Positions 10,616 through 27,978 of a DNA stretch of 64,000 nt are shown piece by piece (the stretch's first letter is position 1; every line of letters starts with the position of its first letter). Where the stretch lies: the IMG/VR virus record IMGVR_UViG_3300021561_000002, positions 1-64,000 of that record. The stretch is one strand, 5' to 3'. Origin of the DNA: a virus (lineage: Duplodnaviria; Caudoviricetes). The translations under genes and the position numbers were made by a program. The notes beneath the pieces are model-generated. The model was not told the DNA's origin. It searched no databases and was given only the letters and a program-made list of their open reading frames with translations.

Positions 10616-10847
10616 CCCCATCGAAGTTCCTCTGTCCTCCCCGTCTGACCTCGCCAACGAGTTCAAGTATCTGACCGAGGACCAGAAGATAGTCAAAATC
10701 ATGGAGATGATGAAGAACATCTATTTCGGCGAGTTGGTCATCAAGAAGCACAAGGGAAAGATTGCCGCTTTCGACTTCAAGGGCCAGGTCTTGTTCCGGC
10801 TCGAAGAGTTCGACAAGGCCAAGGCGGCGAAGGCGGCGAAACTGTGA
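10599..10847 (+). CDS. Small protein, possibly DUF2292/YezD-like
   Basis: IYFGELVIKKHKGKI resembles the FGxVxIxxHxG pattern of DUF2292 (recalled, not searched). Confidence 0.45.
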   Translation: MPQGSNPIEVPLSSPSDLANEFKYLTEDQKIVKIMEMMKNIYFGELVIKKHKGKIAAFDFKGQVLFRLEEFDKAKAAKAAKL

Positions 10848-13800
10848 ACGATGCTCCCATGAGTTCCCAATTTGCCGGAGACCCCAGGGCTCAGTACCGT
10901 CTCCGCATGACAAAGAAGGTCGGCAACCGTATCGAGGAAGTGGACGTTCAGAAACCCGATGCGGCGGCCGAAGAGGATATGATTCTTGCCGGGCTCGAAG
11001 GATTCCAGGGCGGCGGTACGGGCTTCGCTCGGTTCCTTGCCCAAGCCGCAAAACGCTCCTCGAATCCGAGCTTCGGAGTGACCGGCGGATACATCGACGA
11101 GAATGGCGTCCCTCACACCGGCTCGGATGCCGTGCGCCAGCAGTCGGGTTCGACCGGCTTCGCCGATTTCATGCAACGTCAAGCCCTGAACCCCGATGGG
11201 AACAACGAGGAAGACCGTAGCGCCCCGGCGCATGGGTTCGGAGTCAGCGAAGGGGTGGACCCCACACGTGGTCCAGAGCGTCGTCGTGAACCGGCGAATG
11301 ATGGAGGAATGGCTCTCATGGGAGCCACTAATCGAGAACTTTATCCTCACGAGCCCGAGGAGTTGAACCGCAACCCGTTCGGCAAAGGTCAGTCGAGTGA
11401 TTCGTGCGGGGCGACGGCTTCGATGGGCAAAGAGGAAGTCATCAAGAAGCCTCTCCCCGAGCAGGTCCGTGGTGAAGGCGAAGGCACGGACCTCGTGAGC
11501 CGTTCGGGCCGTCGTCGTAGGATGGCGGCCGTCGATAGGAACGGGGCGTCAATCACCGACGGAGACAGGGTGAAGACCCCCGGTGGAGAAGTCGGGACGG
11601 TTGATTTCATCGACTACTCGACCTACCGGATTTACGTCACCCTCGACAATGGTTACGAGGGAGACTTTTCCTCGGGCGAACTTGAGAAAACCGCCGGGCG
11701 GAGAATGGCGGATGGCCCTCTCCCCAACTGGCAGTCCGAGCCCATCGACGACACGGATGTCCGTGAGCGAAACCGCCTCCCTGTCGTCGAGGACCCTTCC
11801 GGGCGTGACGTTCCGGGCAGGGAAGAAGAGAAGGCAACGCAGATTCCCCCACAGAAGTTCGACGACGAAGGCTCGTGGCCGACGCCCGGATTCTCCCAGG
11901 ACTACCCTCAAGAAAAGGTGAGGAGCACCGAAATCATGGCGCATCAGGCGACACGTGTTCGCCTTGCCGACGGGCGTGTTCTCGTCGGCAGAATCGCCTC
12001 GAACGACGGGTACATGGTGGAGTTCGTGGGGCGTATGGCCGGAGACAGGTCCGATGCCCGCTACTCCTTCCCGGCCCATGAGATTCGTGAGAAGGGTCCG
12101 TTCCGGGTTCGCCAGTCAGAACGTCGTGCGCCCGAGACCTTGGACGACGCCTATGCGGCTTTCAGGAGGGTAGGTAGCCGTGTCCCTTTCGGCCGTAAGG
12201 CGGTGAATAACGCAATGGCATCGAAGCGAACCGCCAAGACCATCGGCGCAATCCCGACGACGAAAGCCGGTGTGCCAATCAATCTTTACATCGAGGGCTT
12301 TGATGACGGTGAAGGGTTCTCCTACACCGAAGATGAGAGCAAGGCGATGGACATGGCGGGTTACGAAGGCGACTTCGAGATGATGCACCCCGAAGGAGTC
12401 ATCATGAAAGTCTCTTCGGCCGGGAGAGGAGAAACCGTCCGTACCGCTCGCGTGGTGGCCCCTGATGCTCCGATGCTCTGCGATAAATGCAATCAGGAAA
12501 TCCCTGTCAGCGGCGGTCTTATCGGCTTTTCCGTTACAGATGGGTATTACGCAAATGCTGACCTGTGCGAATCATGCGCGAACGCCGTGGCGAAAGAGCA
12601 GGAACAGAAGTACGAAATGTTTCTCAACGAGAATGATGGCGATGAGGAATATGCGAAGCGGGATTACGAACGCTGGCTCGAAGATGACGAGAGCGGCTCC
12701 CCGTTTACGGCCGAACGGTATCGTTATCGTTCGGCTTCTAGCGACGTGATTCCAGGGGGTCTCTCGGCCGGGCGCGGCGATGAAGAGTTCGACCCTCAAT
12801 CTCTCCTTGATGGCAAGATGGTTGAGAGGGAACACACCGATGACAGGGACGTTGCGAAGGAAATCGCCAAGGACCACCTGACCGAGGACCCGGCATACTA
12901 CGAGAAACTCAAGATGGTGGAATCCAGGACGGCCGGTGAAGGGACGCCTGGGTTCGACGTGGATGATGAGGTCATCGAAATCCTGCGTGCCGTCAAGAAC
13001 CAGAATGACGGCGGCATTGGAAGCCACACGTTGAGCGAGTTGTCCGACATGGGACTCATGAATTTTTCTCCCGGCGTGGAGTCAACTCTTGAGCCCGGTC
13101 GTTGGTTCCTTACGGAAAAGGGAGAGGCCATGTTGAAAGCGGCGTCAGTCAGAACGGCGGACGGATTCTCAGCGAGCGATGACGAGGGCGACCCGATGGA
13201 CCCCATCGTGCCCGGTCAACGCCGTCAATGCGATAAGTGCGGAGAGACGTATCTTCCGGCCACGCCCGAAGGTGGTCCCGCCGAGCGTGATGACTACTTG
13301 TGCGACAACTGTTACACCGAGAAGATGAAATCAAGGGGGCTGGCGATGGGCTCAAGGATTGCCGGTGCGAGTACCGCTTTCGACGTGACTCTGAACGGCG
13401 AGGTCATCGACACCGTTTATTACGACCAGGGTTCGACCGAAGAGACGGTTCGGCGTGACCTCATCGAACACGACGGGTACGACCCGTCCATCAGCGTCAC
13501 GAAACGTCAAGCCTCCAAGAAAACCGCTGAGGTCGATGTCGATACTCTCCAAAACGAGTTGGAGCCCGGCTTCATCGAGGACATCAAAAGGATGAGAGAA
13601 GAAGGAAAGTCCGATGACTATATTCGGTCGCTCTTTTCGCCTCATGCCGGTCCCGAACTTACGGAAGAGTGGATGGCGAGGGCTTCGTCCAAGCGTGTCG
13701 CCGCTGTCTCCGTCGGGGACCGCGTTCGCTATGCGAGTACCGCTTTCGACGTGACTCTGAACGGCGAGGTCATCGACACCGTTTATTACGACCAGGGTTC

Positions 13801-14269
13801 GACCGAAGAGACGGTTCGGCGTGACCTCATCGAACACGACGGGTACGACCCGTCCATCAGCGTCACGAAACGTCAAGCCTCCAAGCGTGTCGCCGCCGTG
13901 GCGGCTCCCGACCGTAACGCCGGGGAAGACAAGTCCATCGGTGATGGTCAACTGTATGGCGATGACTCGGCCATGCGTGACCAGTTGAAAATCCGTGACA
14001 AGCGCCGCAAGGCCATGAAGGAGCGGTTGACGGCGATGCTTCGCACGGCCGTTCAGTTGGACAGGGCCGGGAAGCACGCCGAGGCCAAGGCCGTTGACCG
14101 GCGAATCGAGGCGATGTACGAGACCTGGAAGCGTGAGGGGAAGGCCATCGAGGGCCTCTCTAGCTTGATGTACCGTAGGTCTCTGTCCCGCATGGCGAGA
14201 GACAACAAGAAGTCCACGTTGTTCTTCCAGAATCAGGCCAAGGCTTCGCAAGACAACCCGTTCCTTTGA
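10844..14269 (+). CDS. Modular acidic polyprotein A (1141 aa); putative internal head/cargo protein
   Basis: Series of small domains (SH3-like, two Zn-binding, DUF5661-like, a duplicated module) separated by linkers such as GRRMA, ASKRTA, ESRTA, ASKKTA, SSKRVA. Confidence 0.8.
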   Translation: MNDAPMSSQFAGDPRAQYRLRMTKKVGNRIEEVDVQKPDAAAEEDMILAGLEGFQGGGTGFARFLAQAAKRSSNPSFGVTGGYIDENGVPHTGSDAVRQQSGSTGFADFMQRQALNPDGNNEEDRSAPAHGFGVSEGVDPTRGPERRREPANDGGMALMGATNRELYPHEPEELNRNPFGKGQSSDSCGATASMGKEEVIKKPLPEQVRGEGEGTDLVSRSGRRRRMAAVDRNGASITDGDRVKTPGGEVGTVDFIDYSTYRIYVTLDNGYEGDFSSGELEKTAGRRMADGPLPNWQSEPIDDTDVRERNRLPVVEDPSGRDVPGREEEKATQIPPQKFDDEGSWPTPGFSQDYPQEKVRSTEIMAHQATRVRLADGRVLVGRIASNDGYMVEFVGRMAGDRSDARYSFPAHEIREKGPFRVRQSERRAPETLDDAYAAFRRVGSRVPFGRKAVNNAMASKRTAKTIGAIPTTKAGVPINLYIEGFDDGEGFSYTEDESKAMDMAGYEGDFEMMHPEGVIMKVSSAGRGETVRTARVVAPDAPMLCDKCNQEIPVSGGLIGFSVTDGYYANADLCESCANAVAKEQEQKYEMFLNENDGDEEYAKRDYERWLEDDESGSPFTAERYRYRSASSDVIPGGLSAGRGDEEFDPQSLLDGKMVEREHTDDRDVAKEIAKDHLTEDPAYYEKLKMVESRTAGEGTPGFDVDDEVIEILRAVKNQNDGGIGSHTLSELSDMGLMNFSPGVESTLEPGRWFLTEKGEAMLKAASVRTADGFSASDDEGDPMDPIVPGQRRQCDKCGETYLPATPEGGPAERDDYLCDNCYTEKMKSRGLAMGSRIAGASTAFDVTLNGEVIDTVYYDQGSTEETVRRDLIEHDGYDPSISVTKRQASKKTAEVDVDTLQNELEPGFIEDIKRMREEGKSDDYIRSLFSPHAGPELTEEWMARASSKRVAAVSVGDRVRYASTAFDVTLNGEVIDTVYYDQGSTEETVRRDLIEHDGYDPSISVTKRQASKRVAAVAAPDRNAGEDKSIGDGQLYGDDSAMRDQLKIRDKRRKAMKERLTAMLRTAVQLDRAGKHAEAKAVDRRIEAMYETWKREGKAIEGLSSLMYRRSLSRMARDNKKSTLFFQNQAKASQDNPFL
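13366..13885 (+). repeat. 154-bp exact direct repeat (13366-13519 and 13732-13885)
   Basis: Identical sequence encoding ASTAFDVTLNGEVIDTVYYDQGSTEETVRRDLIEHDGYDPSISVTKRQASK; offset 366 bp, in frame. Confidence 0.95.
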
Positions 14270-14276
14270 GGGGCAC

Positions 14277-14990
14277 ATGCTGACCATTTCGGCTTCGATT
14301 TCCTACGACTCTAGGGGAAACATCCTGCACAAGGGCGACAGGGTGCTGGCACCGATACCGGTGTCGGATACCTTTTCGGAGTTTTCCGTCGGTACGGATA
14401 TGACGGATACTCTTGTGGAAGCTGAAATATACGATATTCTAGTGGGCAACAGGATTGCTGTCGTCCATCCCGAAGACAAGACCCTCGTGGTCATGGACTC
14501 GGGGAGCACGACCAAGGTGGACAAGCTGGTTCAGGTCGTGGAGCATTTCGAGGGCGACCAAATCGGTCGGATGAACGAGGAGTCGGAGTTGGGCCGAGCG
14601 AGGCTTATGTCTCCGAAGGACGAACTCCTGAACGAAGTGGCTGACATCCTTCTCGACCTGATGAAGTCGGTCAAGAAGGTGGTCATGGCGACGGCCTACA
14701 ACATCAAAAAGGTGGAGAGCGTCGTTACCGCCAGGACCGGTCGTGTCATGGAGGGCAAGGTCGAAGCTGAAATTCACGTTGCCGACATGATGATGAAAAG
14801 GAAGTCCAAGCTGTACGTGGAGTTGTTGGTGCGAGAAGGGACTGTGCAGACACCATTCGGGTTCAGCACCTCGGACGGAAAGCAGTTTCCGTTCAACGAG
14901 GCTGGTATCCGAAAACATTTGAATATCCCGCTGGAACCGTACATCGGAAAGAAACCATCGGGCGCTGTCATGTCGTACAGAAAAGATTAA
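14277..14990 (+). CDS. Hypothetical virion-associated protein with an N-terminal SH3-like motif
   Basis: YDSRGNILHKGDRV resembles the DxxGxxIxxGDxV modules of the neighbouring polyproteins. Confidence 0.65.
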   Translation: MLTISASISYDSRGNILHKGDRVLAPIPVSDTFSEFSVGTDMTDTLVEAEIYDILVGNRIAVVHPEDKTLVVMDSGSTTKVDKLVQVVEHFEGDQIGRMNEESELGRARLMSPKDELLNEVADILLDLMKSVKKVVMATAYNIKKVESVVTARTGRVMEGKVEAEIHVADMMMKRKSKLYVELLVREGTVQTPFGFSTSDGKQFPFNEAGIRKHLNIPLEPYIGKKPSGAVMSYRKD

Positions 14991-15002
14991 AGGAGCCGAA
15001 AG

Positions 15003-16370
15003 ATGCCGCCTGTCAATGCGCCTCTCACCGCCGACGCCACGATGCAGGTCCCTGCGACCTCCGTGGATTTCCAGGGCCAGAAGGGTAACTCCTTCGAGCT
15101 TGGCCTTGGCGTCAACATCCAGCCGTGTAACAACATCGTTGGCATGAACACGACCTCCGTGGTCGTCGCTTCTCAGGCCAACGTCGCCGTAGCCAGCGCC
15201 CTCGAAAACGGGGACGTGGTTGACGGCGTGACTCTCGCCACCGGCAACCTCGTGTTGCTCAAGGCGCAGACCGACCCCAAAGAGAACGGTGTGTACGTGG
15301 TGCCCGCCGCTGGTGCCGCCTCCCGCTCCGCTTCCTTCGGGGCCTATGGCCTGTCGTACCACCGGACGCCCGTTCGTGTCTTGGGCGGCACGGACGCCGG
15401 GAAGATTTTCCTTCAGGCGACCCGTGGTGCCATCGTGGTCGGGACTACGCTCGTGACGTTCGAGGAGTTCGTCGGGCAGTTGGAGCACCAAGCCGACATC
15501 CTCGATGCCACCAAGGAAGCCCTGAACCGTCAGAACGTGAAGCCGTGGCACTCGATTTCCCGCCCTCGCTGGACGGATGGCATCCTGAGTTTCGACAATC
15601 AGGTCATGGAGGGTTTCTACCCGAAGGACAACGTGCGCTTGGCGACCACCGCCGCTCACGGCCTGTCCGGCCTTGCGGCCATCGACGGTGTGACCCCCGT
15701 GGCTGGCGACCGCATCCTGGTCAAGAACGGCACGACCTCTCCGTCGCTCTATACCGCCTGCCGTTGCTCGTCCGTCGGTGCGAACATCGTTCTCGCCAGC
15801 GGCCTTGAGAACGGCGACACGCTCGATTCCCTCACGCTGGCGACCGGCGACCGTGTTTTGGTCAAGGACCAGACCGACCCCATTGAGAACGGCATCTATG
15901 TCGTTCAGGCTTCGGGTGCGGCCGTCCGTGCGACCGACATGGACGTTGCGAGCGAGGTCATCCTCGGGAAGGGCGTGACCGTCACGGAAGGGACGAACGC
16001 CGGCAAGTATTACGCCGTGTCCGCCGTCCCTCATACGATGGGCGTCAACCCGCTGACCTTTGCGCTGTCTTCGGCCGCCTTGCTTGCGGCCGTCGCCAAC
16101 GGCATCTACGTGGCCGATTCCGGCTCGTGGTCCCGCTCGGCCGACGCCAACACTTCGGCGGAAGTCCGCAACGGGATGACGGTGTTCGTGACGGAGGGCG
16201 CGGCGAACGGGGAGAAGTCGTTCTTCATCAGCACGGCGGACCCCTTCTATCTCAACGTGACTCCTCTCGCCTTCAACAACCTCACGGACGTTCTCACCGA
16301 GAACATCGTGAACCAGCCGACCGATACGGTCAAGAATGCGTCGGACGCTGGAATGTACCGGTCGCTGTAA
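15003..16370 (+). CDS. Head fibre/decoration-like protein with three copies of a DGVTLxxGDRVLVKxQ...ENGIYVV domain
   Basis: Three recognisable copies of a domain common in phage fibre/decoration proteins; AAGGAG RBS. Confidence 0.7.
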   Translation: MPPVNAPLTADATMQVPATSVDFQGQKGNSFELGLGVNIQPCNNIVGMNTTSVVVASQANVAVASALENGDVVDGVTLATGNLVLLKAQTDPKENGVYVVPAAGAASRSASFGAYGLSYHRTPVRVLGGTDAGKIFLQATRGAIVVGTTLVTFEEFVGQLEHQADILDATKEALNRQNVKPWHSISRPRWTDGILSFDNQVMEGFYPKDNVRLATTAAHGLSGLAAIDGVTPVAGDRILVKNGTTSPSLYTACRCSSVGANIVLASGLENGDTLDSLTLATGDRVLVKDQTDPIENGIYVVQASGAAVRATDMDVASEVILGKGVTVTEGTNAGKYYAVSAVPHTMGVNPLTFALSSAALLAAVANGIYVADSGSWSRSADANTSAEVRNGMTVFVTEGAANGEKSFFISTADPFYLNVTPLAFNNLTDVLTENIVNQPTDTVKNASDAGMYRSL

Positions 16371-16398
16371 GACCGGGTTTTTGCAGGGCATCTTCGGC

Positions 16399-16427
16399 GG
16401 GTCCGCTCTCTTCTTGAGGGCGGACCC
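16399..16427 (+). terminator. GC-rich hairpin between the 15003 gene and polyprotein B
   Basis: gggtccgctctc-ttctt-gagggcggaccc, a 12-bp stem with one G-U pair; no clear U tract follows. Confidence 0.4.
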
Positions 16428-16445
16428 CCTCCTTCGAGGACATCA

Positions 16446-19400
16446 ATGGATAGGGCTACCCGCAGGGCACTCCGTCGGAATACCTACGCTCTCATGGCCG
16501 AGCGAGTTCGTAGGGAGGCTCAGGTCAGCGTGACCGAAGAATGGGCACCGGATGGTACGGTGAAACGCACTACCAAGATGGACAACTCGATGCCCGGAGA
16601 GGCGGAGTTGCTCCTGAAGATGTTGTCGTTGGCTCCGCCCGAGGCGGCGGAGGTCGTGAACGATGCGAAGGCCAAAGGCATCTTGCCCGAGGGGAATCCT
16701 GCGCCCGCTCCGACCGAGGAAGTAGTGGCCGAGCAGGGTCCGGCGATGCAGGAGGACGACCAGGCGGACGTGAAGGGTCGAGTCTCGGAAGGAAAGAAGG
16801 ATTTTCGGGCCTCCGGTAAGAGGTCGTTCTATCCCGACGTTTTGATGCACAAGGTTTTCAACGTTGACGCTCCCGTGACGGCCTCAAAACGCACCGCCGA
16901 TGATAGTGGTGTGTTTGCCGAGGGAGACTTAATCCGGGTGACTCGTGGCGGATACGCCGGTTTGACCGGGAAGGTTCTCGGGTATTCCAGAAACGATGCG
17001 TATTCCGTTCAGCTTGATGGAGGCCAGCCTGGCGATGGGAAGGGCGGGCAATGCGAGTTCTACTCTTCGGAGATGGAGAAGACCGCTTCCAAGCGTACCG
17101 CCGAACTCCGAATCAAAACGACCTACGAGGTCGTGACTCCCGAGAGTGCCGAGGCCGGTGACTTCGAGGAGACTGGCTGGCACGACGAAGTGGGCAAAAC
17201 CTTTTCTAGTGTCGAGGAGGCCGCCTCGTTCCTTCGCAACGAAGGGGCCACCGAGTATTCGGACAGCCGACCCGACTTCAACCAGGGCTATCGTGGATGG
17301 TACATCGGACAGCCCGACAATGATTACGAGACCGGGGCCGAGACCACGAAGAACTACCACCTGGAAGGTTTCTCTTCTGATGACGCCAGGGAACTCCACA
17401 AGCTCGTCACGGGTCAGGATACGCCTCCCATCGACCACGGCCAGCAGGAGATGTTTGCGGCGAAGCGGGTTGCGGTAACGAGGGAAGATTTTGTCAATGC
17501 GGCCACCGAACAATACTTGAAAAGTGGCGTCTCCTACGACGAAGCAAGACAGTATGCGGAAGACGATGCTGATTACATCGAGGGCCCGGCGCCAGAATTT
17601 ACCCGATATGTGCATGGCCCCTTCGATAAGGCTTCATCGAAACGCACCGCCTCGTTCCAAGTCGGCGACCGGGTTCGCATTACGCAGTACGAACACGCCG
17701 GTAAAGAAGGTGAACTCGGTTCGACCAACGATTACACGAACAAAGTCTTGGTCATCTTGGACGATGGGACTCGTGTTCGTGTCTGGCCAGGAGACCTTGA
17801 GAAGGTTGGCTCTAGGCGTACCGCCTCGTTCCAGGTAGGCGACAAGGTTCAAACGAAAGACGGGCGTTCCCCGATTTTCAACGTTGTCGAAGAATCCCGT
17901 GAGCGTGGCGACGGGTTTACGGTTTATGACCGCCTCGTTGTCGTCGAGGCTAACGGTCAACGGTACGAGATGAGCGAGAAGGACTTGGTGAAGGTTGCAT
18001 ACAGCCGTTACTCCGGCGACCCGTTTTGGATGAAGGTGAAGTATCCCACGACCTGTAAGCGGTGCGGAAAGTCCGTCCAGCCAGGCGAGGAGGTTTTCCG
18101 GTTCAAGGACGGCTCGATGTATTGCGACGCCCCTGATTGCGGTCAGCGGGAGTCGAACTCTTTCAATGCGTCGGCGCAGGACGAAGCCATGTTCGGCGGA
18201 GGCATGGACGAAGGCATGATGGAGTTCGGGTCGAAGCGCGTGGCCGCTGATTGGGAGTCTCTTCTTCGCAAGCAGAGAGACGCCGAGGGATACGTGGCCG
18301 CAATCAAGGACACCCGTGGCGGGGAAACGTATTGGGGCAAGTCCGGCGAGACGCACAAGGAACTCATCTTCCGGGTTTTCATGGAACAGAGCGACGACAA
18401 AAAAGACGTTCGGAATCTCATCATCGCGTTGGATATGTACGGCATCGGAAGCGGCCCATTCTCGCACATCGAAGCGGGATTCGTTGACCCCGAAGAGGGG
18501 CGTTTTCTATCTCAAGACGAGATGCAGAACCGCATGGGCGGAGGAGGCAAGGGGAGAATCATTACGGAATACCTTCCCTCTTACCAGACCGCCGCGAAGC
18601 GCACGGCGCAGTCCACCCGCGAGTACCTCGAAACCTTCTTCGAGGAGAAACAGCTTCCTCATCAATCGTGGGACATCACGGACCAGAACGGGACCATGCA
18701 CTACATCGACAGCGATGTGGTCATCGAGGCCCTGCTCAACGCTCCACCGCAGGAGCAGGAACAAGCGGCCAACATCATCCGCAAAATCGACTTCATGAAC
18801 GGTGACGTGAACCACTTCCTGAAACATCTTGCGACCGGGCTCGTCATGAACTCCTCGGGAGGTTCCGAGATTTTCGCCATGAGGCGTTCTCTGAAGACCG
18901 CCGGATACTCCGTCCGTAAGGGAACCAAGGCTGAAATCGAGGCCATCTATCCTTCCCTTCAGATGGTGTCGGCCAGCGGGGAAGCGAACTTCAGTAAGCC
19001 CTCTTTCGCATCCATCGAGGACGAAATCTCCATCGGCGACAATGGCTCGGTCACGGTGTTCAAGGGACCGGACCGCTCTGGCGTGACCGGCAAGTGGTGG
19101 GAGTTGGAAGGCGTTCCGGTCGAAGTGTACGACCGCACGGCCTCCAAGAGGCAAGCCGATTTCAAGGGCGGGGAGCGTGTGAAGATAAACAGCGACTTCG
19201 CGGAGTTTCCCTACGGTTTTGTGGAAAGCGTCAATGATGACGGAACCGTGAAAGTCGTTTACGACAACGAGGGAACTTGGGGACATGGAATTGGTCCCGC
19301 GAGAACGTTCTATCTCAATGAGTTGGAAAAGACTTCTTCCAAGCGTAAGGCTGATGACAGCCGTGTTCCTCAAGTCGGCGACACCGTCGGCAAGGTGACG

Positions 19401-19703
19401 AAGGTGGCGACCAAGAAGGAAGAGGGCGCGGTTCAGGCCCCGGTCGAGGTCCACAGCATCGACGACACCAAAATCCAGACGTGGTTCGAGCGCGACCGTC
19501 AGCATGTGGCTCTCGTGGACGCCGAGACCGAACAGAATACCATCATCGAGTGGTGGGACGAGGCCGTGACGGAAGCGGTGGAGGATGGTTTCCTGGACCC
19601 TCGTGACTATCACGGTTCGGCCTACGACTACGCCAAGAGTAATGGCCTCCTCATCGAGATGCCGTATGAACAACCGACGTGGGACGAAGCCTTTAGCCTG
19701 TGA
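16446..19703 (+). CDS. Modular acidic polyprotein B (1085 aa)
   Basis: About 12 modules separated by ASKRTA, AAKRVA, SSKRTA, GSRRTA, GSKRVA, AAKRTA, ASKRQA and SSKRKA linkers. Confidence 0.8.
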   Translation: MDRATRRALRRNTYALMAERVRREAQVSVTEEWAPDGTVKRTTKMDNSMPGEAELLLKMLSLAPPEAAEVVNDAKAKGILPEGNPAPAPTEEVVAEQGPAMQEDDQADVKGRVSEGKKDFRASGKRSFYPDVLMHKVFNVDAPVTASKRTADDSGVFAEGDLIRVTRGGYAGLTGKVLGYSRNDAYSVQLDGGQPGDGKGGQCEFYSSEMEKTASKRTAELRIKTTYEVVTPESAEAGDFEETGWHDEVGKTFSSVEEAASFLRNEGATEYSDSRPDFNQGYRGWYIGQPDNDYETGAETTKNYHLEGFSSDDARELHKLVTGQDTPPIDHGQQEMFAAKRVAVTREDFVNAATEQYLKSGVSYDEARQYAEDDADYIEGPAPEFTRYVHGPFDKASSKRTASFQVGDRVRITQYEHAGKEGELGSTNDYTNKVLVILDDGTRVRVWPGDLEKVGSRRTASFQVGDKVQTKDGRSPIFNVVEESRERGDGFTVYDRLVVVEANGQRYEMSEKDLVKVAYSRYSGDPFWMKVKYPTTCKRCGKSVQPGEEVFRFKDGSMYCDAPDCGQRESNSFNASAQDEAMFGGGMDEGMMEFGSKRVAADWESLLRKQRDAEGYVAAIKDTRGGETYWGKSGETHKELIFRVFMEQSDDKKDVRNLIIALDMYGIGSGPFSHIEAGFVDPEEGRFLSQDEMQNRMGGGGKGRIITEYLPSYQTAAKRTAQSTREYLETFFEEKQLPHQSWDITDQNGTMHYIDSDVVIEALLNAPPQEQEQAANIIRKIDFMNGDVNHFLKHLATGLVMNSSGGSEIFAMRRSLKTAGYSVRKGTKAEIEAIYPSLQMVSASGEANFSKPSFASIEDEISIGDNGSVTVFKGPDRSGVTGKWWELEGVPVEVYDRTASKRQADFKGGERVKINSDFAEFPYGFVESVNDDGTVKVVYDNEGTWGHGIGPARTFYLNELEKTSSKRKADDSRVPQVGDTVGKVTKVATKKEEGAVQAPVEVHSIDDTKIQTWFERDRQHVALVDAETEQNTIIEWWDEAVTEAVEDGFLDPRDYHGSAYDYAKSNGLLIEMPYEQPTWDEAFSL

Positions 19704-19724
19704 TTCCAAAGCCGTAAGGAGAAG

Positions 19725-22700
19725 ATGATGCGTACTCGCAAGACAGCCTTGACCGAGCAGTCCTTCAAGCAATCCCTGGAAGGAAAGGAGTTTATGTCTC
19801 CTTCCTGCGGAGGTCCAGTCCGCATCAATGGAGGGCGTGTCGTCCTCAATGGGTACGAGGACGTGACCGATTCCTGTGATTGGTCGAAGCTCATGGACGA
19901 ATACCAGGCGTGGAATATCGGCGGAGCGTATCAGCGCATGACGGCAAGCGACGCCAGCACGGAGTCTTCCAGGTACATCGCCCATATCGGGGACCGGGTT
20001 CGGTATCAGACCGAGGACGGCTCCGAGGGCGAGGGCATCCTTCAGGACGTTCAACTCGGGATGGACAATGGTTTCCATGACAACTTCTACATCATCAAGA
20101 AGGATGATGGCGAAGAGGCTCGAATCCCAACTTTCAGCCTGCTCATGTTCCAGAAGGTCTCCATGAAGAAAACCTCCGACATCAATCCCGATGATTACAG
20201 CTACGAGACTTACTACGATGAAATCGGAAAGCTCGACAGCGAAGGCCGCGAGGTGCGTTGGCTCAACGTTAACCGAACCGGCCCGAAAGGCTCGCATCAA
20301 GTCGCATCCATTCCCGTTCATGAAGGCCAGACTGACCCGATGAGGCTCATCGAAGACCTGAAGGCCGTGGACCGCATGGGCATGGAAGGCAGGGAATGGT
20401 CCGAGGCGTTCAATCGGGTGTTCGATAAGTACATGGTCCCTGGCATGGACGCCGTAATCTCTGCGAGTGGGATGGGCGAGTTGTATCGTTATTCCTCCGA
20501 GATGAAAAGGACCGCTTTGACCGGCTGGCTTGAAGGGATGACCGAGGACGAAGTCAAGGGGATGCCGGTTCAAGTGGTCTTCGAGGACCCGAGTGGTCGT
20601 GGCCTGAAGAGCGAGGAATATCCGAACTTCCAAGCCGCTCTTTCGGCGGGTCATGATTTCATCCGTCCGAACGATTGGCAGAATGCGATGAAGGGGGTTT
20701 CTTACGAGACCAATGCCACGGTTCTCCGATTCGAGAGCCCGGAAGCGTACCGCATTCTTTCTGCGTCGAAGAGGGTTAGGGTTGCGTGGTCAGGTCCGGT
20801 GAAGGTCGTGACCGACTCCTGCGACTGGTCGAAGCTCATGGACGAGTCTCAGGCGTGGAGCCTCGGCGGGGCGTACAATAAAATGGTCGCCAATAAAAAG
20901 ACGGCTGGCGCTACCGACATGGATGGGCAACCCATCGAGGTCGGAGATAAGGTTCGCGCTCAGTCCCTCTACAACGTTTCCGAAGGAGAGGGCCAGACGC
21001 ACGATGGCGGAACGGGAGTCGTGACGGAAATCAACGAACTCGGTCAAGTTCGCGTGAAGTGGGATGCTGGCTCCGAGGGAACCGGGGCCGACTGGAACGA
21101 GGGGGCCACTTTGTATGTGCGTCCTTCCGTTCAGATTTACGAGCCGTTTACCGGAACGAAGGTTCATGGCTCCATGACCGATGACCAGACTCGCGAGCAG
21201 ATTCTCTCCTTCGTCAAGGACTGCAAGGAGAAGGGGCGTAGCCGTACCGAGTGCATCTCCGACGCCTGTTTGCAGTACCGTGGCATGGACGACGCGGTGT
21301 ACGAGGTCGTGGACGAAGTGTACGGGAAGAACTCGAACGTGTGGGCTTCCAAGAAGACCGCCGCTGACGAGAGTGCCCTGAAGTTCTCCGCGACCGTCGT
21401 CGAGGACACCAACGACCCGAACGGTAGCGAGGGGATGTTCTTCGTCGATGTGAAGTGCACGGGGCCGGATGGCACGGTCGGCGAGTGGAGTGAGTGGTAT
21501 CCCGAAGCCGATGCCAAGAGGTATAGCGGCTTCATCAACCAGAACCCGACGTTCCAATACATGCAGGAACATCGCGGTTCTCCCGAGGCGGACATGATGC
21601 ACGAGGCATGGCAGGATTTCCGGTCCAAGGGTGGTCAACTCTACGCTTCCCGTAAGCCGAAACTCGGAGACCATGTTACCGGCATGAGTATCACCCTGGC
21701 CGGTAAGAACATCCGTGTGGCGGGTGTCCTGCTTCGCAATGAGTACGAGGACATCTACACGGTTCGCACGGCCAACGGGGACTACCCCGTCATCGAGCGT
21801 GACCTGAAGAGCGCCCCGAAGAAGTACGCCTCCATCGCCGACGAAATCCAAGACCTCAAGGGGCGGAAAGAGATGCTTGAGGTCGAGTATGACTCGGCTG
21901 AGACCGACGACCAGAAGGCGGCGTTTACCGCTCGCATCGACGAACTGGACCGGGAAATCAATGCTCTCGAAGCCAAGACCGCGATGACCGACCCGACGTT
22001 CTTCGGCCACGGTTTGAAGTGCGCCGAAATCGAGGGCGGCAACACCCCGACCTTGACTTCTCCTTCGACCGAGGAAATCTCGGACAACGCCGACGTTCCT
22101 CTCTCCATGCGCCCCAAGGGGGAGCCCGGCGAGGGCTCGGAGTACCGAACGAAGATTTCTAGGAGACGCCGCACGGCCGAAGACGCCATCAAGGCCGGAG
22201 ATGACGTGGTGGTTTTTGCCGACGCCGCTCACGAAATCGGTCAGTACGGCGGTAAGGTCGTTGAGGTCAAGCCCAACGGCTATGCGATGGTCGAGAGCTA
22301 TAAATTCCCAGGAGACCCGGAGGAAGTAGGGCTTGCCTGGGTTGAGAAAATCAGCCCCGAAGAGGCCGCTGATTGGGGCAAGGTCGGCTCGAAGCGAATC
22401 GCCGGACATAGGAGACGCCGCACGGCCGAAGACGCCATCAAGGCCGGAGATGACGTGGTGGTTTTTGCCGACGCCGCTCACGAAATCGGTCAGTACGGCG
22501 GTAAGGTCGTTGAGGTCAAGCCCAACGGCTATGCGATGGTCGAGAGCTATAAATTCCCAGGAGACCCGGAGGAAGTAGGGCTTGCCTGGGTTGAGAAAAT
22601 CAGCCCCGAAGAGGCCGCTGATTGGGGCAAGGTCGGCTCGAAGCGAATCGCCGGACAAACCATCTGCCGCAAATGCGGGGCCGTGTTTGTTCCGACCACC

Positions 22701-23378
22701 GACGACCCCGTTGAAGAGGCCGAGGACCTGGGATGGGAAATCGGGCAGATAGGCGGATACTTCACGTTCGAGAGGGAAATCGGGCAGATAGGCGGATACG
22801 TCACGTTCGAGAATAGCCTGTGCCCCGATTGCCGTAAACGCCGTAAGTCCGGCTCCGTTCGTTCCGCCGACAACGGTGCGGCCCCCACGATAGGCGGCGC
22901 TCCCGAAGGTCTCGATGACGTTGAGGGCGAAAAGAAAACGGCCGAGGTTGAACTCGATGAGAACATCTTCGAGAGCGAGGATGATGCTCCTCACCGTTTC
23001 CGTGGCGAGGAGAAGGACCAGTCAGTCATGCGTTCATCTTCGGACGGGGCCAAGGGCTACCAGTCAAGCGGGCCGTTCGTTGCCCCTCCCTCGGCGTTGC
23101 CGGGCGCGTATGCCTCTTGCCCGACCGGCATCCCGAAGGACGTGAAAGATGAAGTCATCGACGAATACGGCAAGGACAGCCCCAAGACCTACATGACCTT
23201 GAACAAAATCAAGGACGACATGAAGGAGGGCAAGACTGCCTCGTTCATGGGGGACCAGATGGACGAAATCTTCAAGGCCAAGGTCGAACAGTACGTGGCC
23301 GAGGGGATGAGTGAAGAAGAGGCCAAGAAGAAGGCCGAGGATGCGGTTCTGTCCGAATACTCCTTTTGGGCGGACTAA
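19725..23378 (+). CDS. Modular acidic polyprotein C (1217 aa)
   Basis: About 17 modules separated by RKTA, MKRTA, NKKTA, ASKKTA, RRRTA, GSKRIA and EKKTA linkers; contains exact internal duplications. Confidence 0.8.
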   Translation: MMRTRKTALTEQSFKQSLEGKEFMSPSCGGPVRINGGRVVLNGYEDVTDSCDWSKLMDEYQAWNIGGAYQRMTASDASTESSRYIAHIGDRVRYQTEDGSEGEGILQDVQLGMDNGFHDNFYIIKKDDGEEARIPTFSLLMFQKVSMKKTSDINPDDYSYETYYDEIGKLDSEGREVRWLNVNRTGPKGSHQVASIPVHEGQTDPMRLIEDLKAVDRMGMEGREWSEAFNRVFDKYMVPGMDAVISASGMGELYRYSSEMKRTALTGWLEGMTEDEVKGMPVQVVFEDPSGRGLKSEEYPNFQAALSAGHDFIRPNDWQNAMKGVSYETNATVLRFESPEAYRILSASKRVRVAWSGPVKVVTDSCDWSKLMDESQAWSLGGAYNKMVANKKTAGATDMDGQPIEVGDKVRAQSLYNVSEGEGQTHDGGTGVVTEINELGQVRVKWDAGSEGTGADWNEGATLYVRPSVQIYEPFTGTKVHGSMTDDQTREQILSFVKDCKEKGRSRTECISDACLQYRGMDDAVYEVVDEVYGKNSNVWASKKTAADESALKFSATVVEDTNDPNGSEGMFFVDVKCTGPDGTVGEWSEWYPEADAKRYSGFINQNPTFQYMQEHRGSPEADMMHEAWQDFRSKGGQLYASRKPKLGDHVTGMSITLAGKNIRVAGVLLRNEYEDIYTVRTANGDYPVIERDLKSAPKKYASIADEIQDLKGRKEMLEVEYDSAETDDQKAAFTARIDELDREINALEAKTAMTDPTFFGHGLKCAEIEGGNTPTLTSPSTEEISDNADVPLSMRPKGEPGEGSEYRTKISRRRRTAEDAIKAGDDVVVFADAAHEIGQYGGKVVEVKPNGYAMVESYKFPGDPEEVGLAWVEKISPEEAADWGKVGSKRIAGHRRRRTAEDAIKAGDDVVVFADAAHEIGQYGGKVVEVKPNGYAMVESYKFPGDPEEVGLAWVEKISPEEAADWGKVGSKRIAGQTICRKCGAVFVPTTDDPVEEAEDLGWEIGQIGGYFTFEREIGQIGGYVTFENSLCPDCRKRRKSGSVRSADNGAAPTIGGAPEGLDDVEGEKKTAEVELDENIFESEDDAPHRFRGEEKDQSVMRSSSDGAKGYQSSGPFVAPPSALPGAYASCPTGIPKDVKDEVIDEYGKDSPKTYMTLNKIKDDMKEGKTASFMGDQMDEIFKAKVEQYVAEGMSEEEAKKKAEDAVLSEYSFWAD
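22160..22657 (+). repeat. 249-bp exact tandem duplication (22160-22408 and 22409-22657)
   Basis: Two identical 83-codon units encoding RRRRTAEDAIKAGDDVVV...GSKRIAG. Confidence 0.95.
22735..22812 (+). repeat. 39-bp tandem duplication with one mismatch
   Basis: gggaaatcgggcagataggcggatac[t/g]tcacgttcgaga x2; encodes EIGQIGGY[F/V]TFE. Confidence 0.9.
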
Positions 23379-24985
23379 TGAACAAGACCGCTACCATCTT
23401 CGATAAGAGTGGGCTCATTGCCCTTCAGCTTGGAATGACCGTTGAGGTTCAGACCAATCCGTACTGGTACGGAGAAATCGTGGACATCGAAGGTCGTGAG
23501 GGACAAGAGAAGGTCGAGGTCGAAGGTCTCCATGAACCGAAGAGGGAATGGGTCTCGGTTAAGGACGTAGTGGCGTGGAAGGGCAAAACTGAAGGCTCGA
23601 AGAGGACTGCCATGTTCAACAAAGGCGACCGCATCAAGTTCGTTGGCGACTTCCCGGCTGGCTCGGTCGGCGAGAAGTATCGCAATGAAGGGTCGGAGGG
23701 CGTCGTTCAGGGAGAGGGATACGACCCCGATTATTTCGACCTTGAGGGCAACGGTCCTACGGGTAGCGATGGTCAATACTCCGTCCTCATGGATGACGGG
23801 TATGACCTCATGGTGCCGGAAAAGAACTTGGAGAAGGTGGCCTCGATGAATAAGACATCCGCTATCGACAGTAATGGTCAGGAACTCAAAGTCGGCGATA
23901 TGGTCCGGGTGTTAGGCTTCGCAGGAGAGACAGTAGAGGCCGAAGTCACGAGCGTCACCGAAAGGCAAATCCAGGTCTCTTGGGTTGAGGACGGGATGAA
24001 GATGGCGACGAACATCTGGACCGATGGGCGTAGCAAAATTGAAAAGGTTGCCGCTTGGCGGTCGGGCAATCACCTTCGCCTCGCCTCCAAGAAGACCGCA
24101 TGGAACCCCGAAGGAACCGATGCCACTCCGAATGCCGAAAAAATCATGCGGGCTTTCGATGATGTCGAAAGAGAAACCGGTGCTCAGTCCGGCACGGCCG
24201 TCCGTGAGGAGCCGTGGGCCTCGAAGTTCCTGGCCCACTTTGTTGCTGACGGTTGCAAACCGGCGAGCGACGACGACCTGAAGGCCCTCGAAGATTACAA
24301 CTATCACTCGGCCATCTACATCCTCACGATGAACGGACTCGTGACCGGGAACTACTACACGAAGTCCACTTATGGCTCGAAGAAGACCGCCAGCGAACTC
24401 ACCGACGCCATCGGGGAGCCCATCCTGGTCGGCGACAAAGTTCTCGATACGGAGACGGACGAAGAGGGCGATGTCATCGAGGTTTCAGGCGTCGAGGCTT
24501 TCATCGAATGGTTGTCTTCCGGTCGTCAGGAGTGGACGACGGGCGACATGCTCGTCAAGGCCATGAAGAAGGAAGCCGAATACTTCGAGGACGAAATCTT
24601 CGATGAGGACACGACCGACGACGAGGGCGCTTTCAACCCGAACTCTTCTTCCGCCGTGAGTCATTCGTTCGCCGTCGGAGACATCCTTCATGGTTCCTTT
24701 GGGTATGACGAGACCCACAACTACTTCGCAGAGGTCACGGGCCTCGTGGGGTCCTCTACGTTACTCGTTCGCCCAATCTCTTACGAGCAGGTCGGGGAGA
24801 TGGAAGACAGATTTTCAAGCAGGGTTCGTCCGATTCCCGGAAAATACATTGGCCCCGAGGTTCGTACGAGAGTTAACCGTAGCGGGAACTACGCTAAGGT
24901 TCCGGTTCCGAACATTAGCGAAATGATGTCGGCCAGCAAGTGCAATCCGAGCGACACGTTCTACGCCTCGTCTGGTTTTCATTGA
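23378..24985 (+). CDS. Modular acidic polyprotein D (535 aa)
   Basis: ATG 23378 overlaps the stop of polyprotein C (TAATG); modules separated by NKTA, GSKRTA, EKVA, ASKKTA and GSKKTA. Confidence 0.8.
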   Translation: MNKTATIFDKSGLIALQLGMTVEVQTNPYWYGEIVDIEGREGQEKVEVEGLHEPKREWVSVKDVVAWKGKTEGSKRTAMFNKGDRIKFVGDFPAGSVGEKYRNEGSEGVVQGEGYDPDYFDLEGNGPTGSDGQYSVLMDDGYDLMVPEKNLEKVASMNKTSAIDSNGQELKVGDMVRVLGFAGETVEAEVTSVTERQIQVSWVEDGMKMATNIWTDGRSKIEKVAAWRSGNHLRLASKKTAWNPEGTDATPNAEKIMRAFDDVERETGAQSGTAVREEPWASKFLAHFVADGCKPASDDDLKALEDYNYHSAIYILTMNGLVTGNYYTKSTYGSKKTASELTDAIGEPILVGDKVLDTETDEEGDVIEVSGVEAFIEWLSSGRQEWTTGDMLVKAMKKEAEYFEDEIFDEDTTDDEGAFNPNSSSAVSHSFAVGDILHGSFGYDETHNYFAEVTGLVGSSTLLVRPISYEQVGEMEDRFSSRVRPIPGKYIGPEVRTRVNRSGNYAKVPVPNISEMMSASKCNPSDTFYASSGFH

Positions 24986-25027: not shown

Positions 25028-27901
25028 ATGAGCGACCGCACATACCGACCTGTAAACCAGCGCCAGATTCTCGGCTTCGATGGTAAACCTCTTACCTCGA
25101 AGCCGAAGTCCGTTATCGTTCCTGGCACCAGGAGGTCGGCCGCTGATGTGGCGCTCACGTCGCCGGAGATTCGTAACCCTCTACTCAACATCGTCAACTT
25201 CTTCCTCCCGTACAACTACAAGGTACTGAATCAATGGATTCGGTACTACGACCGCTTTCATCCGATGGTCGGTAACTGTATCGACCTGCACGGGTACTTC
25301 CCCATTTCCAAGTTCGACTTGAAGTTGGGGAAGCAGGACGAAGAGGTTCTCAACGTGTACGAGGATTGTTCGGAGGAAATAGAACTATTCCAGAGATTCC
25401 TCGAAATGAGCCGCGAGTTTGAACTCATTGGGGAGGAGTATCCTTACCTGCATTGGAGCGATGAACTCAACTTCTTCGACTCCATGACCTTGATGAACCC
25501 CGACTTCATCAACGTCAAGATGCACCCGTTGGCTTTAGGCATGAAGCCGACTATCGAACTTGAGCCGGACGAACTCCTGAAGAGCCTCATCCAGTCCAAT
25601 GAGCCCGAGGACATCGAAATCAAGCAGTCCTTGGACCCCGTTGTGATTTCGGCTGTGATGATGGGCCAGAACATCCGCATCGACCAGTTCAACACCGAGC
25701 AGATTGCCCGTAAGGCTTCTCCTTACGAGCCCCGTGGCACCTCCATCGTCCTCCGCATCCTGAAGGACCTGTTGTACGAGGACAAGCTCCGTGAGGCGCA
25801 GTATTCGGTGGCCGACGGCATGATTACGCCGAAGGTCATTTACAAACTTGGCGACCCGAACAACGGCTACATGCCTACCACCGAGGACCTGACAGACTTC
25901 CGAGCCCTGCTCCAAGCTCAGGCCCATGACCCGCTTGCGGCAATCGTGACTCACTACGGTCTGTCCCTTGAGTACGTGGGGGCATACGGGAAGATTCTTC
26001 CCATCGTGCCGGAGTTCCAGTTCATCGAGGACCGCATCCTGACTGGCCTATACACGAACAAGGCCCTGACGCATGGTGAGGGCCCGTGTGCGAGTTCCGA
26101 CACAGAAACACTTACTCGTCGAGGATTCAAATTCTACGATGAAATCACGGATGAGGATGAGATTGCGACGTACAACTCCGTGACCGGAAAATTGGAATAC
26201 CACAAACCGACAGGTCGAGTTAAGTTCAATGTGGACAGCGAACTCATCCTGTTCGAGAATAGATGTCTTGACCATTTTGTTACCCCGAATCATAAGGTTT
26301 GGGCAAGGAAGCCCAACGGTAAGTTTGAGAAGATGAGGGCTGATGAGGTTTCGGAAAAATACGAGTTTATGACAACCCCGGAAAATGGTTGGGATGGAGC
26401 CTCGCCTGAATACGTCCAGGTAGGGGACCGAAAAATTCCGACGAATGATTACATGAGGTTCGTCGGTCTTTATCTGTCGGAAGGCTCGATGGAATTTTCT
26501 AGGACGGCGGAATTTGTTAAGACGGGAAATAAATCATGTACCCGCCCAATCGAAATCCGAATTACTCAAACCGAGGTTCACAAGTCCGGCCTTAATCCGT
26601 GGTACGGACGTGTCAAAGAGGCCGTCTTGAAAGCGTTCCCCGACGCCATCGAAAGACAGGCAAAAAGACAAAATGGAAACTACGGGACTTTCAGGATTAA
26701 GGGAGGAGACATAGCGGCTCATTTCCTTTTGAATTACGGAGAGGGGAGCGCCGTTAAGACCGTTCCTGCTTGGGTTAAGAGTTTTGGGATGGATGCTTTA
26801 AAGGCTCTGATTGACGGGTTTCATATCGGAGACGGCTCGGATTTCTCGAACTCGGATAGCGGATTTGAGCTTAACACCGTATCGAAGGTTCTAGCCGATG
26901 ACTTGCAAGAAATCTGTTTGAAGTGCGGCTATTACTCAAAAAATTCAGTTCGGACAAGAACCGGAAGAAAGAAACTGTACAGATTGAAAATCCATCCCTT
27001 TAACATTCGGAGGGATTATGGATTTACTCCAATGTTGTCGAAGGGCGACATCAAGCGAATCCCTTACAAGGGGTGGGTCTATTGTTTTGAGGTTCCCAAT
27101 CGTCTTTTCGTCATGCGACGAAATGGAAAGATTTGCATAACTCATAACACCTACGCCAACGCCACCGTGGCGATGGAGGCTCTCCAAGGTCGGTACATGG
27201 CGAAGCGGGAGAAGTTAGAGGACTTTGCCATCCGAAAGATTTTCACTCCGGTCGCTCTCGCCAACGAGTTCTACGAACCTCTCACCGAGGCGCAGTCCTC
27301 CCACGGCGTCCGTCCTTCGCGCAAGGACCGCAAGCTGAATATACCGACCTTCGAGTGGAAGCAGAAATTGAGGCTCGTGGACGACATTCAACGGAAGCAG
27401 ATGGTCATCAACCTCCGCAACCGTCCCATCCCCGAGGTTTCCCTGCGGAAGATTTACGACGAGCTTGGTATCGACTTCGACACCGAAATGCAGGCGTTGA
27501 AGGAAGAGGCCAAGATTATGAAGCAGATGAAGCAGGACTACGGCGTGGAGAACCCGTTGTTGAATCCCGGTTCTCGTCCTGGCGGTCAGATGCCTGGTTT
27601 GCCGGGCGAGAGCGGAACGACGAGACCCGTTCAGCCTCCAAGGGACATCTCGATGGTCAAGGCCCCAGGCGGCGGAGGAAGCAAGTCCTCTACCCAGGAG
27701 CCAGGTGGCCCGTCCAAGACCAAGGAACCCGGCGGCGAACTGAAGGGGGCAAGCGCATCATGGAACTCCGAATTACAACAGGCTCGCAAAGAAAAGGCCA
27801 AACTTCTCGTGGCGTTGTCGGACCCGCCGAAATTCTTCTCGGAGGACGGGCGGCTGAAGGACGTTCACGCTCTCGAAGCGGAAGCGGCATTGAGGTCGTA
27901 A
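25028..27901 (+). CDS. Portal protein interrupted by an intein
   Basis: First gene of the head module (before MuF, protease and capsid); LLYEDKLREAQ..VAD..ITP...KLGD and ILP...F..IEDRILTGL resemble portals of large myoviruses; about 603 aa after intein removal. Confidence 0.8.
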   Translation: MSDRTYRPVNQRQILGFDGKPLTSKPKSVIVPGTRRSAADVALTSPEIRNPLLNIVNFFLPYNYKVLNQWIRYYDRFHPMVGNCIDLHGYFPISKFDLKLGKQDEEVLNVYEDCSEEIELFQRFLEMSREFELIGEEYPYLHWSDELNFFDSMTLMNPDFINVKMHPLALGMKPTIELEPDELLKSLIQSNEPEDIEIKQSLDPVVISAVMMGQNIRIDQFNTEQIARKASPYEPRGTSIVLRILKDLLYEDKLREAQYSVADGMITPKVIYKLGDPNNGYMPTTEDLTDFRALLQAQAHDPLAAIVTHYGLSLEYVGAYGKILPIVPEFQFIEDRILTGLYTNKALTHGEGPCASSDTETLTRRGFKFYDEITDEDEIATYNSVTGKLEYHKPTGRVKFNVDSELILFENRCLDHFVTPNHKVWARKPNGKFEKMRADEVSEKYEFMTTPENGWDGASPEYVQVGDRKIPTNDYMRFVGLYLSEGSMEFSRTAEFVKTGNKSCTRPIEIRITQTEVHKSGLNPWYGRVKEAVLKAFPDAIERQAKRQNGNYGTFRIKGGDIAAHFLLNYGEGSAVKTVPAWVKSFGMDALKALIDGFHIGDGSDFSNSDSGFELNTVSKVLADDLQEICLKCGYYSKNSVRTRTGRKKLYRLKIHPFNIRRDYGFTPMLSKGDIKRIPYKGWVYCFEVPNRLFVMRRNGKICITHNTYANATVAMEALQGRYMAKREKLEDFAIRKIFTPVALANEFYEPLTEAQSSHGVRPSRKDRKLNIPTFEWKQKLRLVDDIQRKQMVINLRNRPIPEVSLRKIYDELGIDFDTEMQALKEEAKIMKQMKQDYGVENPLLNPGSRPGGQMPGLPGESGTTRPVQPPRDISMVKAPGGGGSKSSTQEPGGPSKTKEPGGELKGASASWNSELQQARKEKAKLLVALSDPPKFFSEDGRLKDVHALEAEAALRS
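26087..27148 (+). mobile_element. Intein (354 aa) with a LAGLIDADG-type homing endonuclease domain
   Basis: Starts at Cys (GEGP|CASSDTETLTRRG); block B FVTPNHKVW; endonuclease motifs FVGLYLSEGS and ALIDGFHIGDGS; block F/G WVYCFEVP...ICITHN|T with Thr at +1; DNA visibly more AT-rich than the flanks. Confidence 0.92.
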
Positions 27902-27978
27902 GGTCCATTAAGACCATTCAAGCCTGTCTTCATCCAGAGGAACACGCCGACCATGTATGCCATTGCGGCATCACACGG

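Follow-up and report, generated by a model that had tools for sequence, protein, structure and literature searches.

The internal head proteins IPI-III and Alt of phage T4 are processed by gp21 and injected with the DNA, and each of these cargoes is a single protein carrying one N-terminal targeting peptide of ~10 residues, which is removed after L/I-x-E. In phiKZ and SPN3US, inner-body and ejection proteins are cut by gp175 and gp245 at A-x-E, some of them at several sites, and a large mass of protein is packaged with the DNA (PMC10052503). The polyvalent proteins of Iyer, Burroughs, Anand, de Souza and Aravind (2017) join 2-15 mostly enzymatic domains for which release by embedded peptidases was proposed, and the authors themselves liken them to viral polyproteins (PMC5512222). 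In the herpesvirus UL26 system, self-cleavage at a release site liberates the protease, which also cuts the scaffold close to the C terminus; the mature protease ends in alanine, which in the pseudorabies virus (PrV) assemblin is Ala225 (PMC4498786). Here we analyze the first 64 kb (the window) of a single 74,470-bp IMG/VR virus record, IMGVR_UViG_3300021561_000002, in which four giant open reading frames (ORFs) of 1141, 1085, 1217 and 539 residues (3,982 in total), named polyproteins A to D, lie on the + strand directly upstream of the portal gene and are punctuated by a recurrent basic linker. We put at about even odds (a probability near 0.5) the reading that these are head polyproteins whose linkers the prohead protease cuts within the capsid.

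In the mechanism that we propose, the four ORFs would be head-module polyproteins, each made of one or two constant parts (the N-terminal domain of polyprotein B and the N- and C-terminal regions of polyprotein A) and a string of small, mostly acidic cassettes that would include SH3/KOW-like barrels, zinc ribbons and copies of what are separately encoded small proteins in other phages. The linker peptide would be the recognition site of the phage's own prohead protease, which would cut after the invariant alanine (P1 Ala, P3 Lys or Arg). The polyproteins would be co-assembled into the procapsid together with the protease-scaffold and would be cleaved at maturation into roughly 40 proteins of 4-25 kDa, and the pieces would be retained in the head and exit with the DNA. 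The linker would also serve as a joint for the duplication and swapping of cassettes and for their splitting into separate genes.

Compared with the polyvalent proteins, the locus has in common several unrelated domains per polypeptide beside portal and MuF genes, and packaging and delivery with the DNA were proposed for those proteins too (PMC5512222); it differs in having ~40 small non-enzymatic cassettes and one standard peptide, with the cut assigned to the prohead protease. Polyvalent effector or hub domains (MPTase, ArdC-N, methylase, helicase, ART, PBECR and others) were found neither in these polyproteins nor in those of nine relatives in Pfam, PHROGs and NCBIfam searches. The likeness to the UL26 assemblin lies in the fold, the N-terminal protease followed by scaffold, the candidate sites at the end of the protease domain and near the scaffold C terminus, and the predicted P1 Ala; there the substrates are few (the protease itself and the scaffold), whereas here ~40 candidate sites lie in four extra proteins and P1' is not limited to Ser. 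The T4 internal proteins are linked to this system by a protease of the same fold, but here the candidate substrates are polyproteins with many Ala-ending sites, and the N termini of polyproteins D (M-N-K-T-A) and C (M-M-R-T-R-K-T-A) are not T4-type targeting peptides. The phiKZ and SPN3US proteins are encoded by separate paralogous genes with no sign of linker-bounded shuffling, in contrast to the cassette polyproteins, Ala-ending site and far greater number of products proposed here. Phage G has the closest cultured portal, protease and capsid, and its capsid leader is removed after Ala, but its proteins upstream of the portal (gp7 and neighbors) lack a recurrent linker. The sequence-only reading that preceded this analysis knew of no description of phage head polyproteins with so many cargo modules. 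Our literature searches likewise found no description of linker-punctuated cassette polyproteins, although the polyvalent proteins are a published relative of the idea (PMC5512222). The nearest published concepts are polyvalent proteins and protease-processed internal head proteins, from which the polyprotein format, the Ala-ending site and the product number differ.

The linker and the modules that it joins

The sequence-only reading had counted by hand 17 strict S-[KR]-[KR]-x-A sites and roughly 45-50 looser ones. A recount returned exactly 17 (4, 7, 3 and 3 in polyproteins A to D) against 3 in the other + strand ORFs of the window (~12,900 residues), and the pattern [SA][KR][KR][TVIQKM]A was present 20 times in the polyproteins and 0 times in the same comparison set. 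A self-trained position weight matrix found 26-29 sites in the polyproteins compared with 0.2-1.5 in shuffles. The minimal core [KR][TVILMQK]A occurred 58 times, against 13.4 ± 3.6 in residue shuffles (z 12.5), an excess of ~45 with which the looser count therefore agrees. The same core was at chance in tail proteins (26 versus 20.9) and in the upstream small ORFs (10 versus 9.7).

The standard joining peptide is [A/G/S]-[S/M]-K-[K/R]-[T/V/I/Q/K]-A. Across 36 sites, P6 is A, G or S, P5 is S (17) or M (4), P4 is K (25) or R (8), P3 is R (24) or K (12), P2 is T in 20 and P1 is A (32) or S (4). The second basic position is written with eight codons (AAG, CGT, CGC, AGG, CGA, AAA, AGA and CGG), which bears out the synonymous variation noted earlier and therefore places the conservation at the level of the protein.

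The linkers divide the four polyproteins into ~36-40 segments. The modules are nearly all acidic (pI 4.2-5.4), and the linker is the sole basic patch in these otherwise acidic chains. In polyprotein A, a relative conserves residues 19-443 and 1014-1140, with variable cassettes in between; degenerate linker forms are found near residues 697, 772 and 840, DUF5661 matches residues 660-694 (Pfam), and a phrog_6353 module is present twice. The modules had been described as unrelated, which holds in part: at least 11 modules of the four proteins belong to one SH3/KOW-like family by hidden Markov model (HMM) comparison, with KOW also matched in Pfam, and two modules are perfect duplicates, each copied along with its linker. 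One of these is a 249-nt tandem duplicate of one module plus linker in polyprotein C (22160-22657), and the other is an exact 154-nt duplicate in polyprotein A (13366-13519 and 13732-13885, 366 nt apart); both are either very recent events or assembly artifacts.

Pfam, PHROGs and NCBIfam searches with the four polyproteins and those of nine relatives returned only KOW/Tudor-like domains, DUF5661, PHROGs of unknown function and a sub-threshold DUF4314 match (16.9 bits against a 27-bit cut-off). No peptidase family was matched in the four proteins by these HMM searches, which a novel peptidase could escape. PDB sequence searches with all four gave only two weak Spt5 KOW matches, a Foldseek search of the PDB with the multi-module model of polyprotein B residues 140-470 gave no meaningful match, and an ESM Atlas search with the polyprotein B N-terminal domain gave no usable match.

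Three lines of comparison indicate that the linkers are true module borders, as had been proposed. In a HMMER scan of polyprotein B against 1.84 billion representatives (1,287 matches at E ≤ 0.001), modules 221-324, 509-586, 722-802 and 1004-1070 were found as stand-alone phage proteins of 70-110 residues. Such homologues (for example, those of 221-324 and 722-802) begin with a Met aligned 0-3 residues past the linker Ala and do not carry the linker themselves, and the first 120 residues of polyprotein B are always N-terminal in the matches. Among BLAST segments, 30% of the ends fall within 8 residues of a linker, against 13% for random placement (maximum 20% in 500 trials). Of the five linkers in the AlphaFold model of residues 140-470, three fall in segments with a predicted local distance difference test score (pLDDT) <50 that adjoin a domain with pLDDT >85 on one side or both, and the remaining two are in regions where confidence is low or at most moderate. 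One domain starts two residues after the linker Ala, where the pLDDT rises from 44 to 92, and no linker is spanned by a confident domain in this model.

Related genomes, all metagenomic (L001, L002, L006/L007, L008 and P0008-P0012), vary in module content and keep the gene order. The order polyprotein A, 237-residue protein, repeat protein, polyproteins B, C and D, portal is retained while the cassettes differ, and the same modules occur at different positions and in different polyproteins in this phage and its relatives; the module at residues 253-343 of polyprotein D, for example, recurs in polyprotein D of L001 and in polyprotein C of L006. A cassette that lies inside polyprotein A in this phage opens a separate gene in L001, as its first module, and the N termini of polyproteins C and D carry the motif, that of polyprotein C being kept in L001 and L006. 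A linker can take the place of a gene boundary. The linker of the relatives is mostly A-M-K-[KR]-[KT]-A, most commonly A-M-K-K-K-A, and in P0008 and L008, the closest relatives, Ser and Met forms occur side by side, so that P5 is a tolerant position. Some modules have homologues among the small free-standing genes that other phages carry in early-type regions. Pseudomonas phage PAK_P3, for instance, has one of 47 residues in a promoter-rich region of small genes, and mycobacteriophage Hashim76 has another in its right arm. Scans with the polyprotein B N-terminal domain found one locus in IMG/VR and one in JGI metagenomes, and the clade is therefore rare in those collections. For P0003, a word-index search gave no short homologues, and there was no match in cultured phages. 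Endonuclease-like genes lie beside the polyprotein genes of two relatives (L001, 176-886; L008, 2513-3268), with none at those places here.

The prohead protease and its candidate sites

The AlphaFold model of residues 1-270 of the ORF at 30522 has a core pLDDT >90, with residues 1-243 folding with high confidence. It superimposes on T4 gp21 (5jbl) with a Z of 10.6 over 130 residues (r.m.s.d. 3.1; VIA-align) and on the assemblins of varicella-zoster virus, PrV, herpes simplex virus and human cytomegalovirus with a Z of 8.4-10.5, whereas the next unrelated folds reach a Z of 6.7 at most. His93 and Ser148, the candidate catalytic pair, are invariant in 26 homologues and are 55 residues apart, which presumably equals the spacing of His85 and Ser140 in T4 gp21. 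Sequence matches include a Gordonia phage "capsid maturation protease", and downstream of the protease domain lies a helical region of ~600 residues rich in Ala, Lys and Glu. This 855-residue ORF is a prohead protease of the assemblin/T4 gp21 fold fused to a scaffold-like region, and its layout is therefore that of herpesvirus UL26.

A short motif, E-K-[VLI]-A, ends the folded protease domain throughout the family (nt 31242-31250 here), exactly where the pLDDT falls, and K-V-A↓A-D-G (the arrow marking a predicted or mapped cut) occurs at residues 267-269. At the other end of the domain, residues 31-37 read S-A-M-K-R-L-A, the only strong full-linker match outside the polyproteins (13.6 bits). 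The protease also has a conserved insert, Cys-x-x-Cys ... Cys-His-His, at residues 158-198 (30993-31118), in which Cys158, Cys161 and Cys196 are invariant or nearly so; it is poorly modeled, possibly a zinc ribbon that T4 gp21 does not have.

An experimental anchor for the cut rule comes from the capsid protein of phage G, which is shortened on maturation from 282 residues (31.2 kDa) to 255 (28.2 kDa) as established by N-terminal sequencing (Hua et al. 2017, PMC5646251). Both masses are recovered when 27 residues are removed, so that the cut falls after Ala27. In the capsid alignment, the homologous column is T-K-I-A↓A in this phage and N-K-I-A↓A in both L001 and L002; two further relatives have K-L-A↓A there, and cluster C-type phages have R-L-G↓Q. 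On this alignment the major capsid protein of the present phage is predicted to be cut after Ala64 (nt 33819-33821), in T-K-I-A↓A-N-M, and the K-I-A↓A of this site matches the core [KR]-x-A of the polyprotein linker. An earlier candidate in the capsid protein, H-V-R-H-A↓G, was rejected because L001 has Glu in place of the Ala, and the site homologous to the phage G cut was adopted in its stead.

Similar candidate sites are found in two other head proteins. The portal has a divergent N-terminal stretch of ~38 residues, then a conserved motif and then a conserved body, with R-R-S-A↓A at residues 35-39 and M-R-T-A↓A in L001, and the MuF protein has a motif-like M-R-R-T-A↓A, conserved as M-K-R-A↓T in L001. 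Together with the capsid column, these portal and MuF sites are the reason for placing the putative scissile bond after the invariant linker Ala.

Genome setting and neighboring genes

The record is that of an uncultured contractile-tail phage (myovirus), with a sheath gene at 45848-47617 and a baseplate wedge gene at 55418-56881. The polyprotein genes are contiguous and co-oriented with those for portal, MuF, protease and capsid (Table 1), and the earlier placement of four open ORFs directly upstream of the portal, protease and capsid genes was correct. The nearest cultured relatives of portal, protease and capsid are gp14, gp19 and gp27 of Bacillus phage G, followed by proteins of cluster C-type actinophages. 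The 237-residue protein between polyproteins A and B had no match in Pfam, PHROG or NCBIfam. A promoter and terminator scan gave a result at chance level.

Table 1. Positions of the polyproteins, their linkers and neighboring head-module genes in the window (aa, residue numbers in the protein)
Feature	Position (nt)	Strand	Remarks
Polyprotein A	10844..14269	+	open ORF; pI 4.9
Linkers of A: RRRMA; GRRMA; SKRTA	11513-11527; 11696-11710; 12221-12235		aa 224-228; 285-289; 460-464
Linkers of A, continued: TKRQA+SKKTA; SKRVA; TKRQA+SKRVA	13499-13528; 13688-13702; 13865-13894		aa 886-895; 949-953; 1008-1017
Conserved 237-aa protein	14277..14990	+	44% identity to an L006 protein of equal length; position kept on P0009 contig
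455-aa repeat-domain virion-type protein (decoration or fiber-like)	15003..16370	+	phrog_24595 and phrog_2647, E 1e-45; 39% identity to L006 counterpart
Polyprotein B	16446..19703	+	pI 4.9; constant N-terminal domain aa 1-125, then shuffled cassettes
Linkers of B	16884-16898; 17088-17102; 17460-17474; 17637-17651; 17811-17825
Linkers of B, continued	18231-18245; 18594-18608; 19143-19157; 19338-19352		a degenerate one at aa 811-819
Polyprotein C	19725..23378	+	pI 4.75; motif R-K-T-A at aa 5-8
Linkers of C	19734-19748; 20163-20177; 20502-20516; 20892-20906; 21348-21362
Linkers of C, continued	22164-22178; 22389-22403; 22413-22427; 22638-22652; 22929-22943
Polyprotein D	23378..24985	+	~535 aa from ATG at 23378 (frame open from 23366); ATG overlaps stop of C
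Linkers of D	23378-23392; 23597-23611; 23846-23860; 24086-24100; 24377-24391
Portal protein with intein-like insert	25028..27901	+	phrog_16240, E 1e-56; phage G gp14, 33% identity
MuF-like minor head protein	27760..29517	+	start uncertain (open from 27355); PF04233, phrog_115
Prohead protease fused to scaffold	30522..33089	+	protease aa 1-243, scaffold aa ~270-855; phrog_18299; phage G gp19, 32% identity
Decoration-like head protein	33146..33616	+	weak phrog_122 match; same position as phage G gp26
Major capsid protein, 324 aa	33630..34604	+	phrog_2522, E 9e-41; phage G gp27, 38% identity

The portal gene carries an intein-like insert of 354 residues (nt 26087-27148), which begins with Cys354 after H-G-E-G-P and ends in His-Asn707 followed by Thr; it has a weak LAGLIDADG match, and the 80%-identical portal of L001 is without it. 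Upstream, the MuF-like ORF stays open for another ~550 nt (27355-27901), reaching into the portal gene from its 3' end in a different frame. Homology to L001 begins near 27760, which gives the portal and MuF genes an apparent overlap of ~140 nt in both phages. The repeat-domain protein listed in Table 1 and a 1605-residue protein (38288-43105) have a repeated domain in common, phrog_2647 / phrog_30390, annotated as head decoration or fiber. At the contig start, positions 1-97 hold 2.3 exact copies of a 42-nt CCG-rich unit, maybe an assembly-end artifact or a terminal repeat. ARAGORN calls a tRNA-Ser(tga) at 47501-47594 on the - strand, antisense to the sheath gene in which it lies; this call is likely to be spurious.

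Weighing the readings of the locus

Several observations weigh against cleavage of the linkers by the prohead protease. The excess of the core motif is weak in head proteins (18 versus 11.9; z 2.0), and the six-residue full linker is almost absent from the canonical head substrates, scoring highly only at the N terminus of the protease. P1' is highly variable across the 36 linker sites. At P3 the mapped phage G site has Ala and not Lys or Arg, and P1 Ala alone is therefore experimentally anchored. In the scaffold, 10 of 16 [KR]-x-A sites are shared with L001, as against 11 of 20 for the control A-x-[KR]; their conservation is no better than that of the control, and we dropped it as functional support. 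No module matches a family of known function in Pfam, PHROGs or NCBIfam, and hence none of anti-defense or takeover function. Finally, half of the genome is missing from the record (CheckV ~50%), and a second protease is therefore possible.

The polyproteins may instead be uncleaved virion or internal proteins of the beads-on-a-string kind, the basic peptide then being a flexible spacer between acidic domains or a short patch on which DNA, scaffold or portal docks. A basic linker in acidic chains could serve charge interactions, and certain junctions in relatives, such as P0014, are without a linker. Such a role needs neither an invariant Ala (32 of 36 sites) nor a fixed register to the native N terminus of the next module, however, and it is hard to reconcile with the tandem double linkers and the N-terminal copies; the core also matches a mapped protease site within the family, that of the phage G capsid. 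We consider a spacer or docking role rather unlikely. An unlikely reading also is that of an auxiliary core or scaffold that the prohead protease cuts and whose fragments leave the head before DNA packaging or in its course, without reaching the host. Scaffold peptides leave the maturing capsid in T4 and HK97, and small acidic fragments could escape it as those peptides do; K/R-x-A sites resembling those of the linkers are present in the scaffold part of the protease ORF, and the constant parts at the N and C termini point to a role in assembly. The cassette turnover, the recent duplications and the early-type stand-alone homologues, on the other hand, look like effector evolution.

Cleavage by another enzyme or at another bond, for instance within the dibasic pair by a cytoplasmic host or phage protease, would make the polyprotein an expression device without a link to the capsid. 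The dibasic pair is conserved as strongly as the linker Ala, and both the missing half of the genome and the rarity of full linkers in head proteins fit such an enzyme. The Pfam, PHROGs and NCBIfam scans found no peptidase domain in the polyproteins or in their neighbors, and the location of the genes within the head operon and the agreement of the P1 Ala with the cut in phage G favor the prohead protease, which leaves another enzyme improbable. We give hardly any weight to linkers being internal translation starts, or to assembly or gene-calling artifacts of fused small genes. The linkers of the relatives usually hold a Met and can coincide with gene starts, but Ser takes the place of Met at most sites of this phage, and Shine-Dalgarno-like sequences accompany 5 of 25 linker ATGs compared with 21 of 142 other internal ATGs. 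With no excess of such sequences, internal initiation at linker Met codons was rejected, and at least six independent contigs have open frames of >1000 codons, which argues against an artifact.

For the reading that we prefer, cleavage at the linkers by the prohead protease inside the capsid, we infer cleavage, packaging and delivery alike, the cargo idea deriving from gene position and from analogy. Delivery of the pieces as effectors has lower odds than cleavage of the linkers. Homology to stand-alone small genes suggests that the cassettes may be early-type effectors, while an anti-defense or host-takeover role for the modules is only an inference. The proposed cut rule can be tied to a published N-terminal sequence from a cultured relative, phage G, which makes this instance useful and the hypothesis directly testable.

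If the linkers are cut, one phage would preload ~40 distinct small proteins from four genes, far above the number in T4 or phiKZ-like phages, and the readable code K-K/R-x-A could be searched for in metagenomes, giving a function-independent flag for candidate injected effectors among phage ORFans. The arrangement would also be a natural design for loading foreign proteins into capsids, and it would explain the movement of such proteins between stand-alone genes and fusions. More tentatively, and as a possibility that we hold to be less probable than not, the locus may represent a general delivery platform of large tailed phages, in which cassette polyproteins are made late, loaded via constant anchors, cut at a lineage-specific peptide that is also the recombination joint, and injected ready-made, the cargo being small host-takeover or anti-defense proteins that other phages make from early genes.

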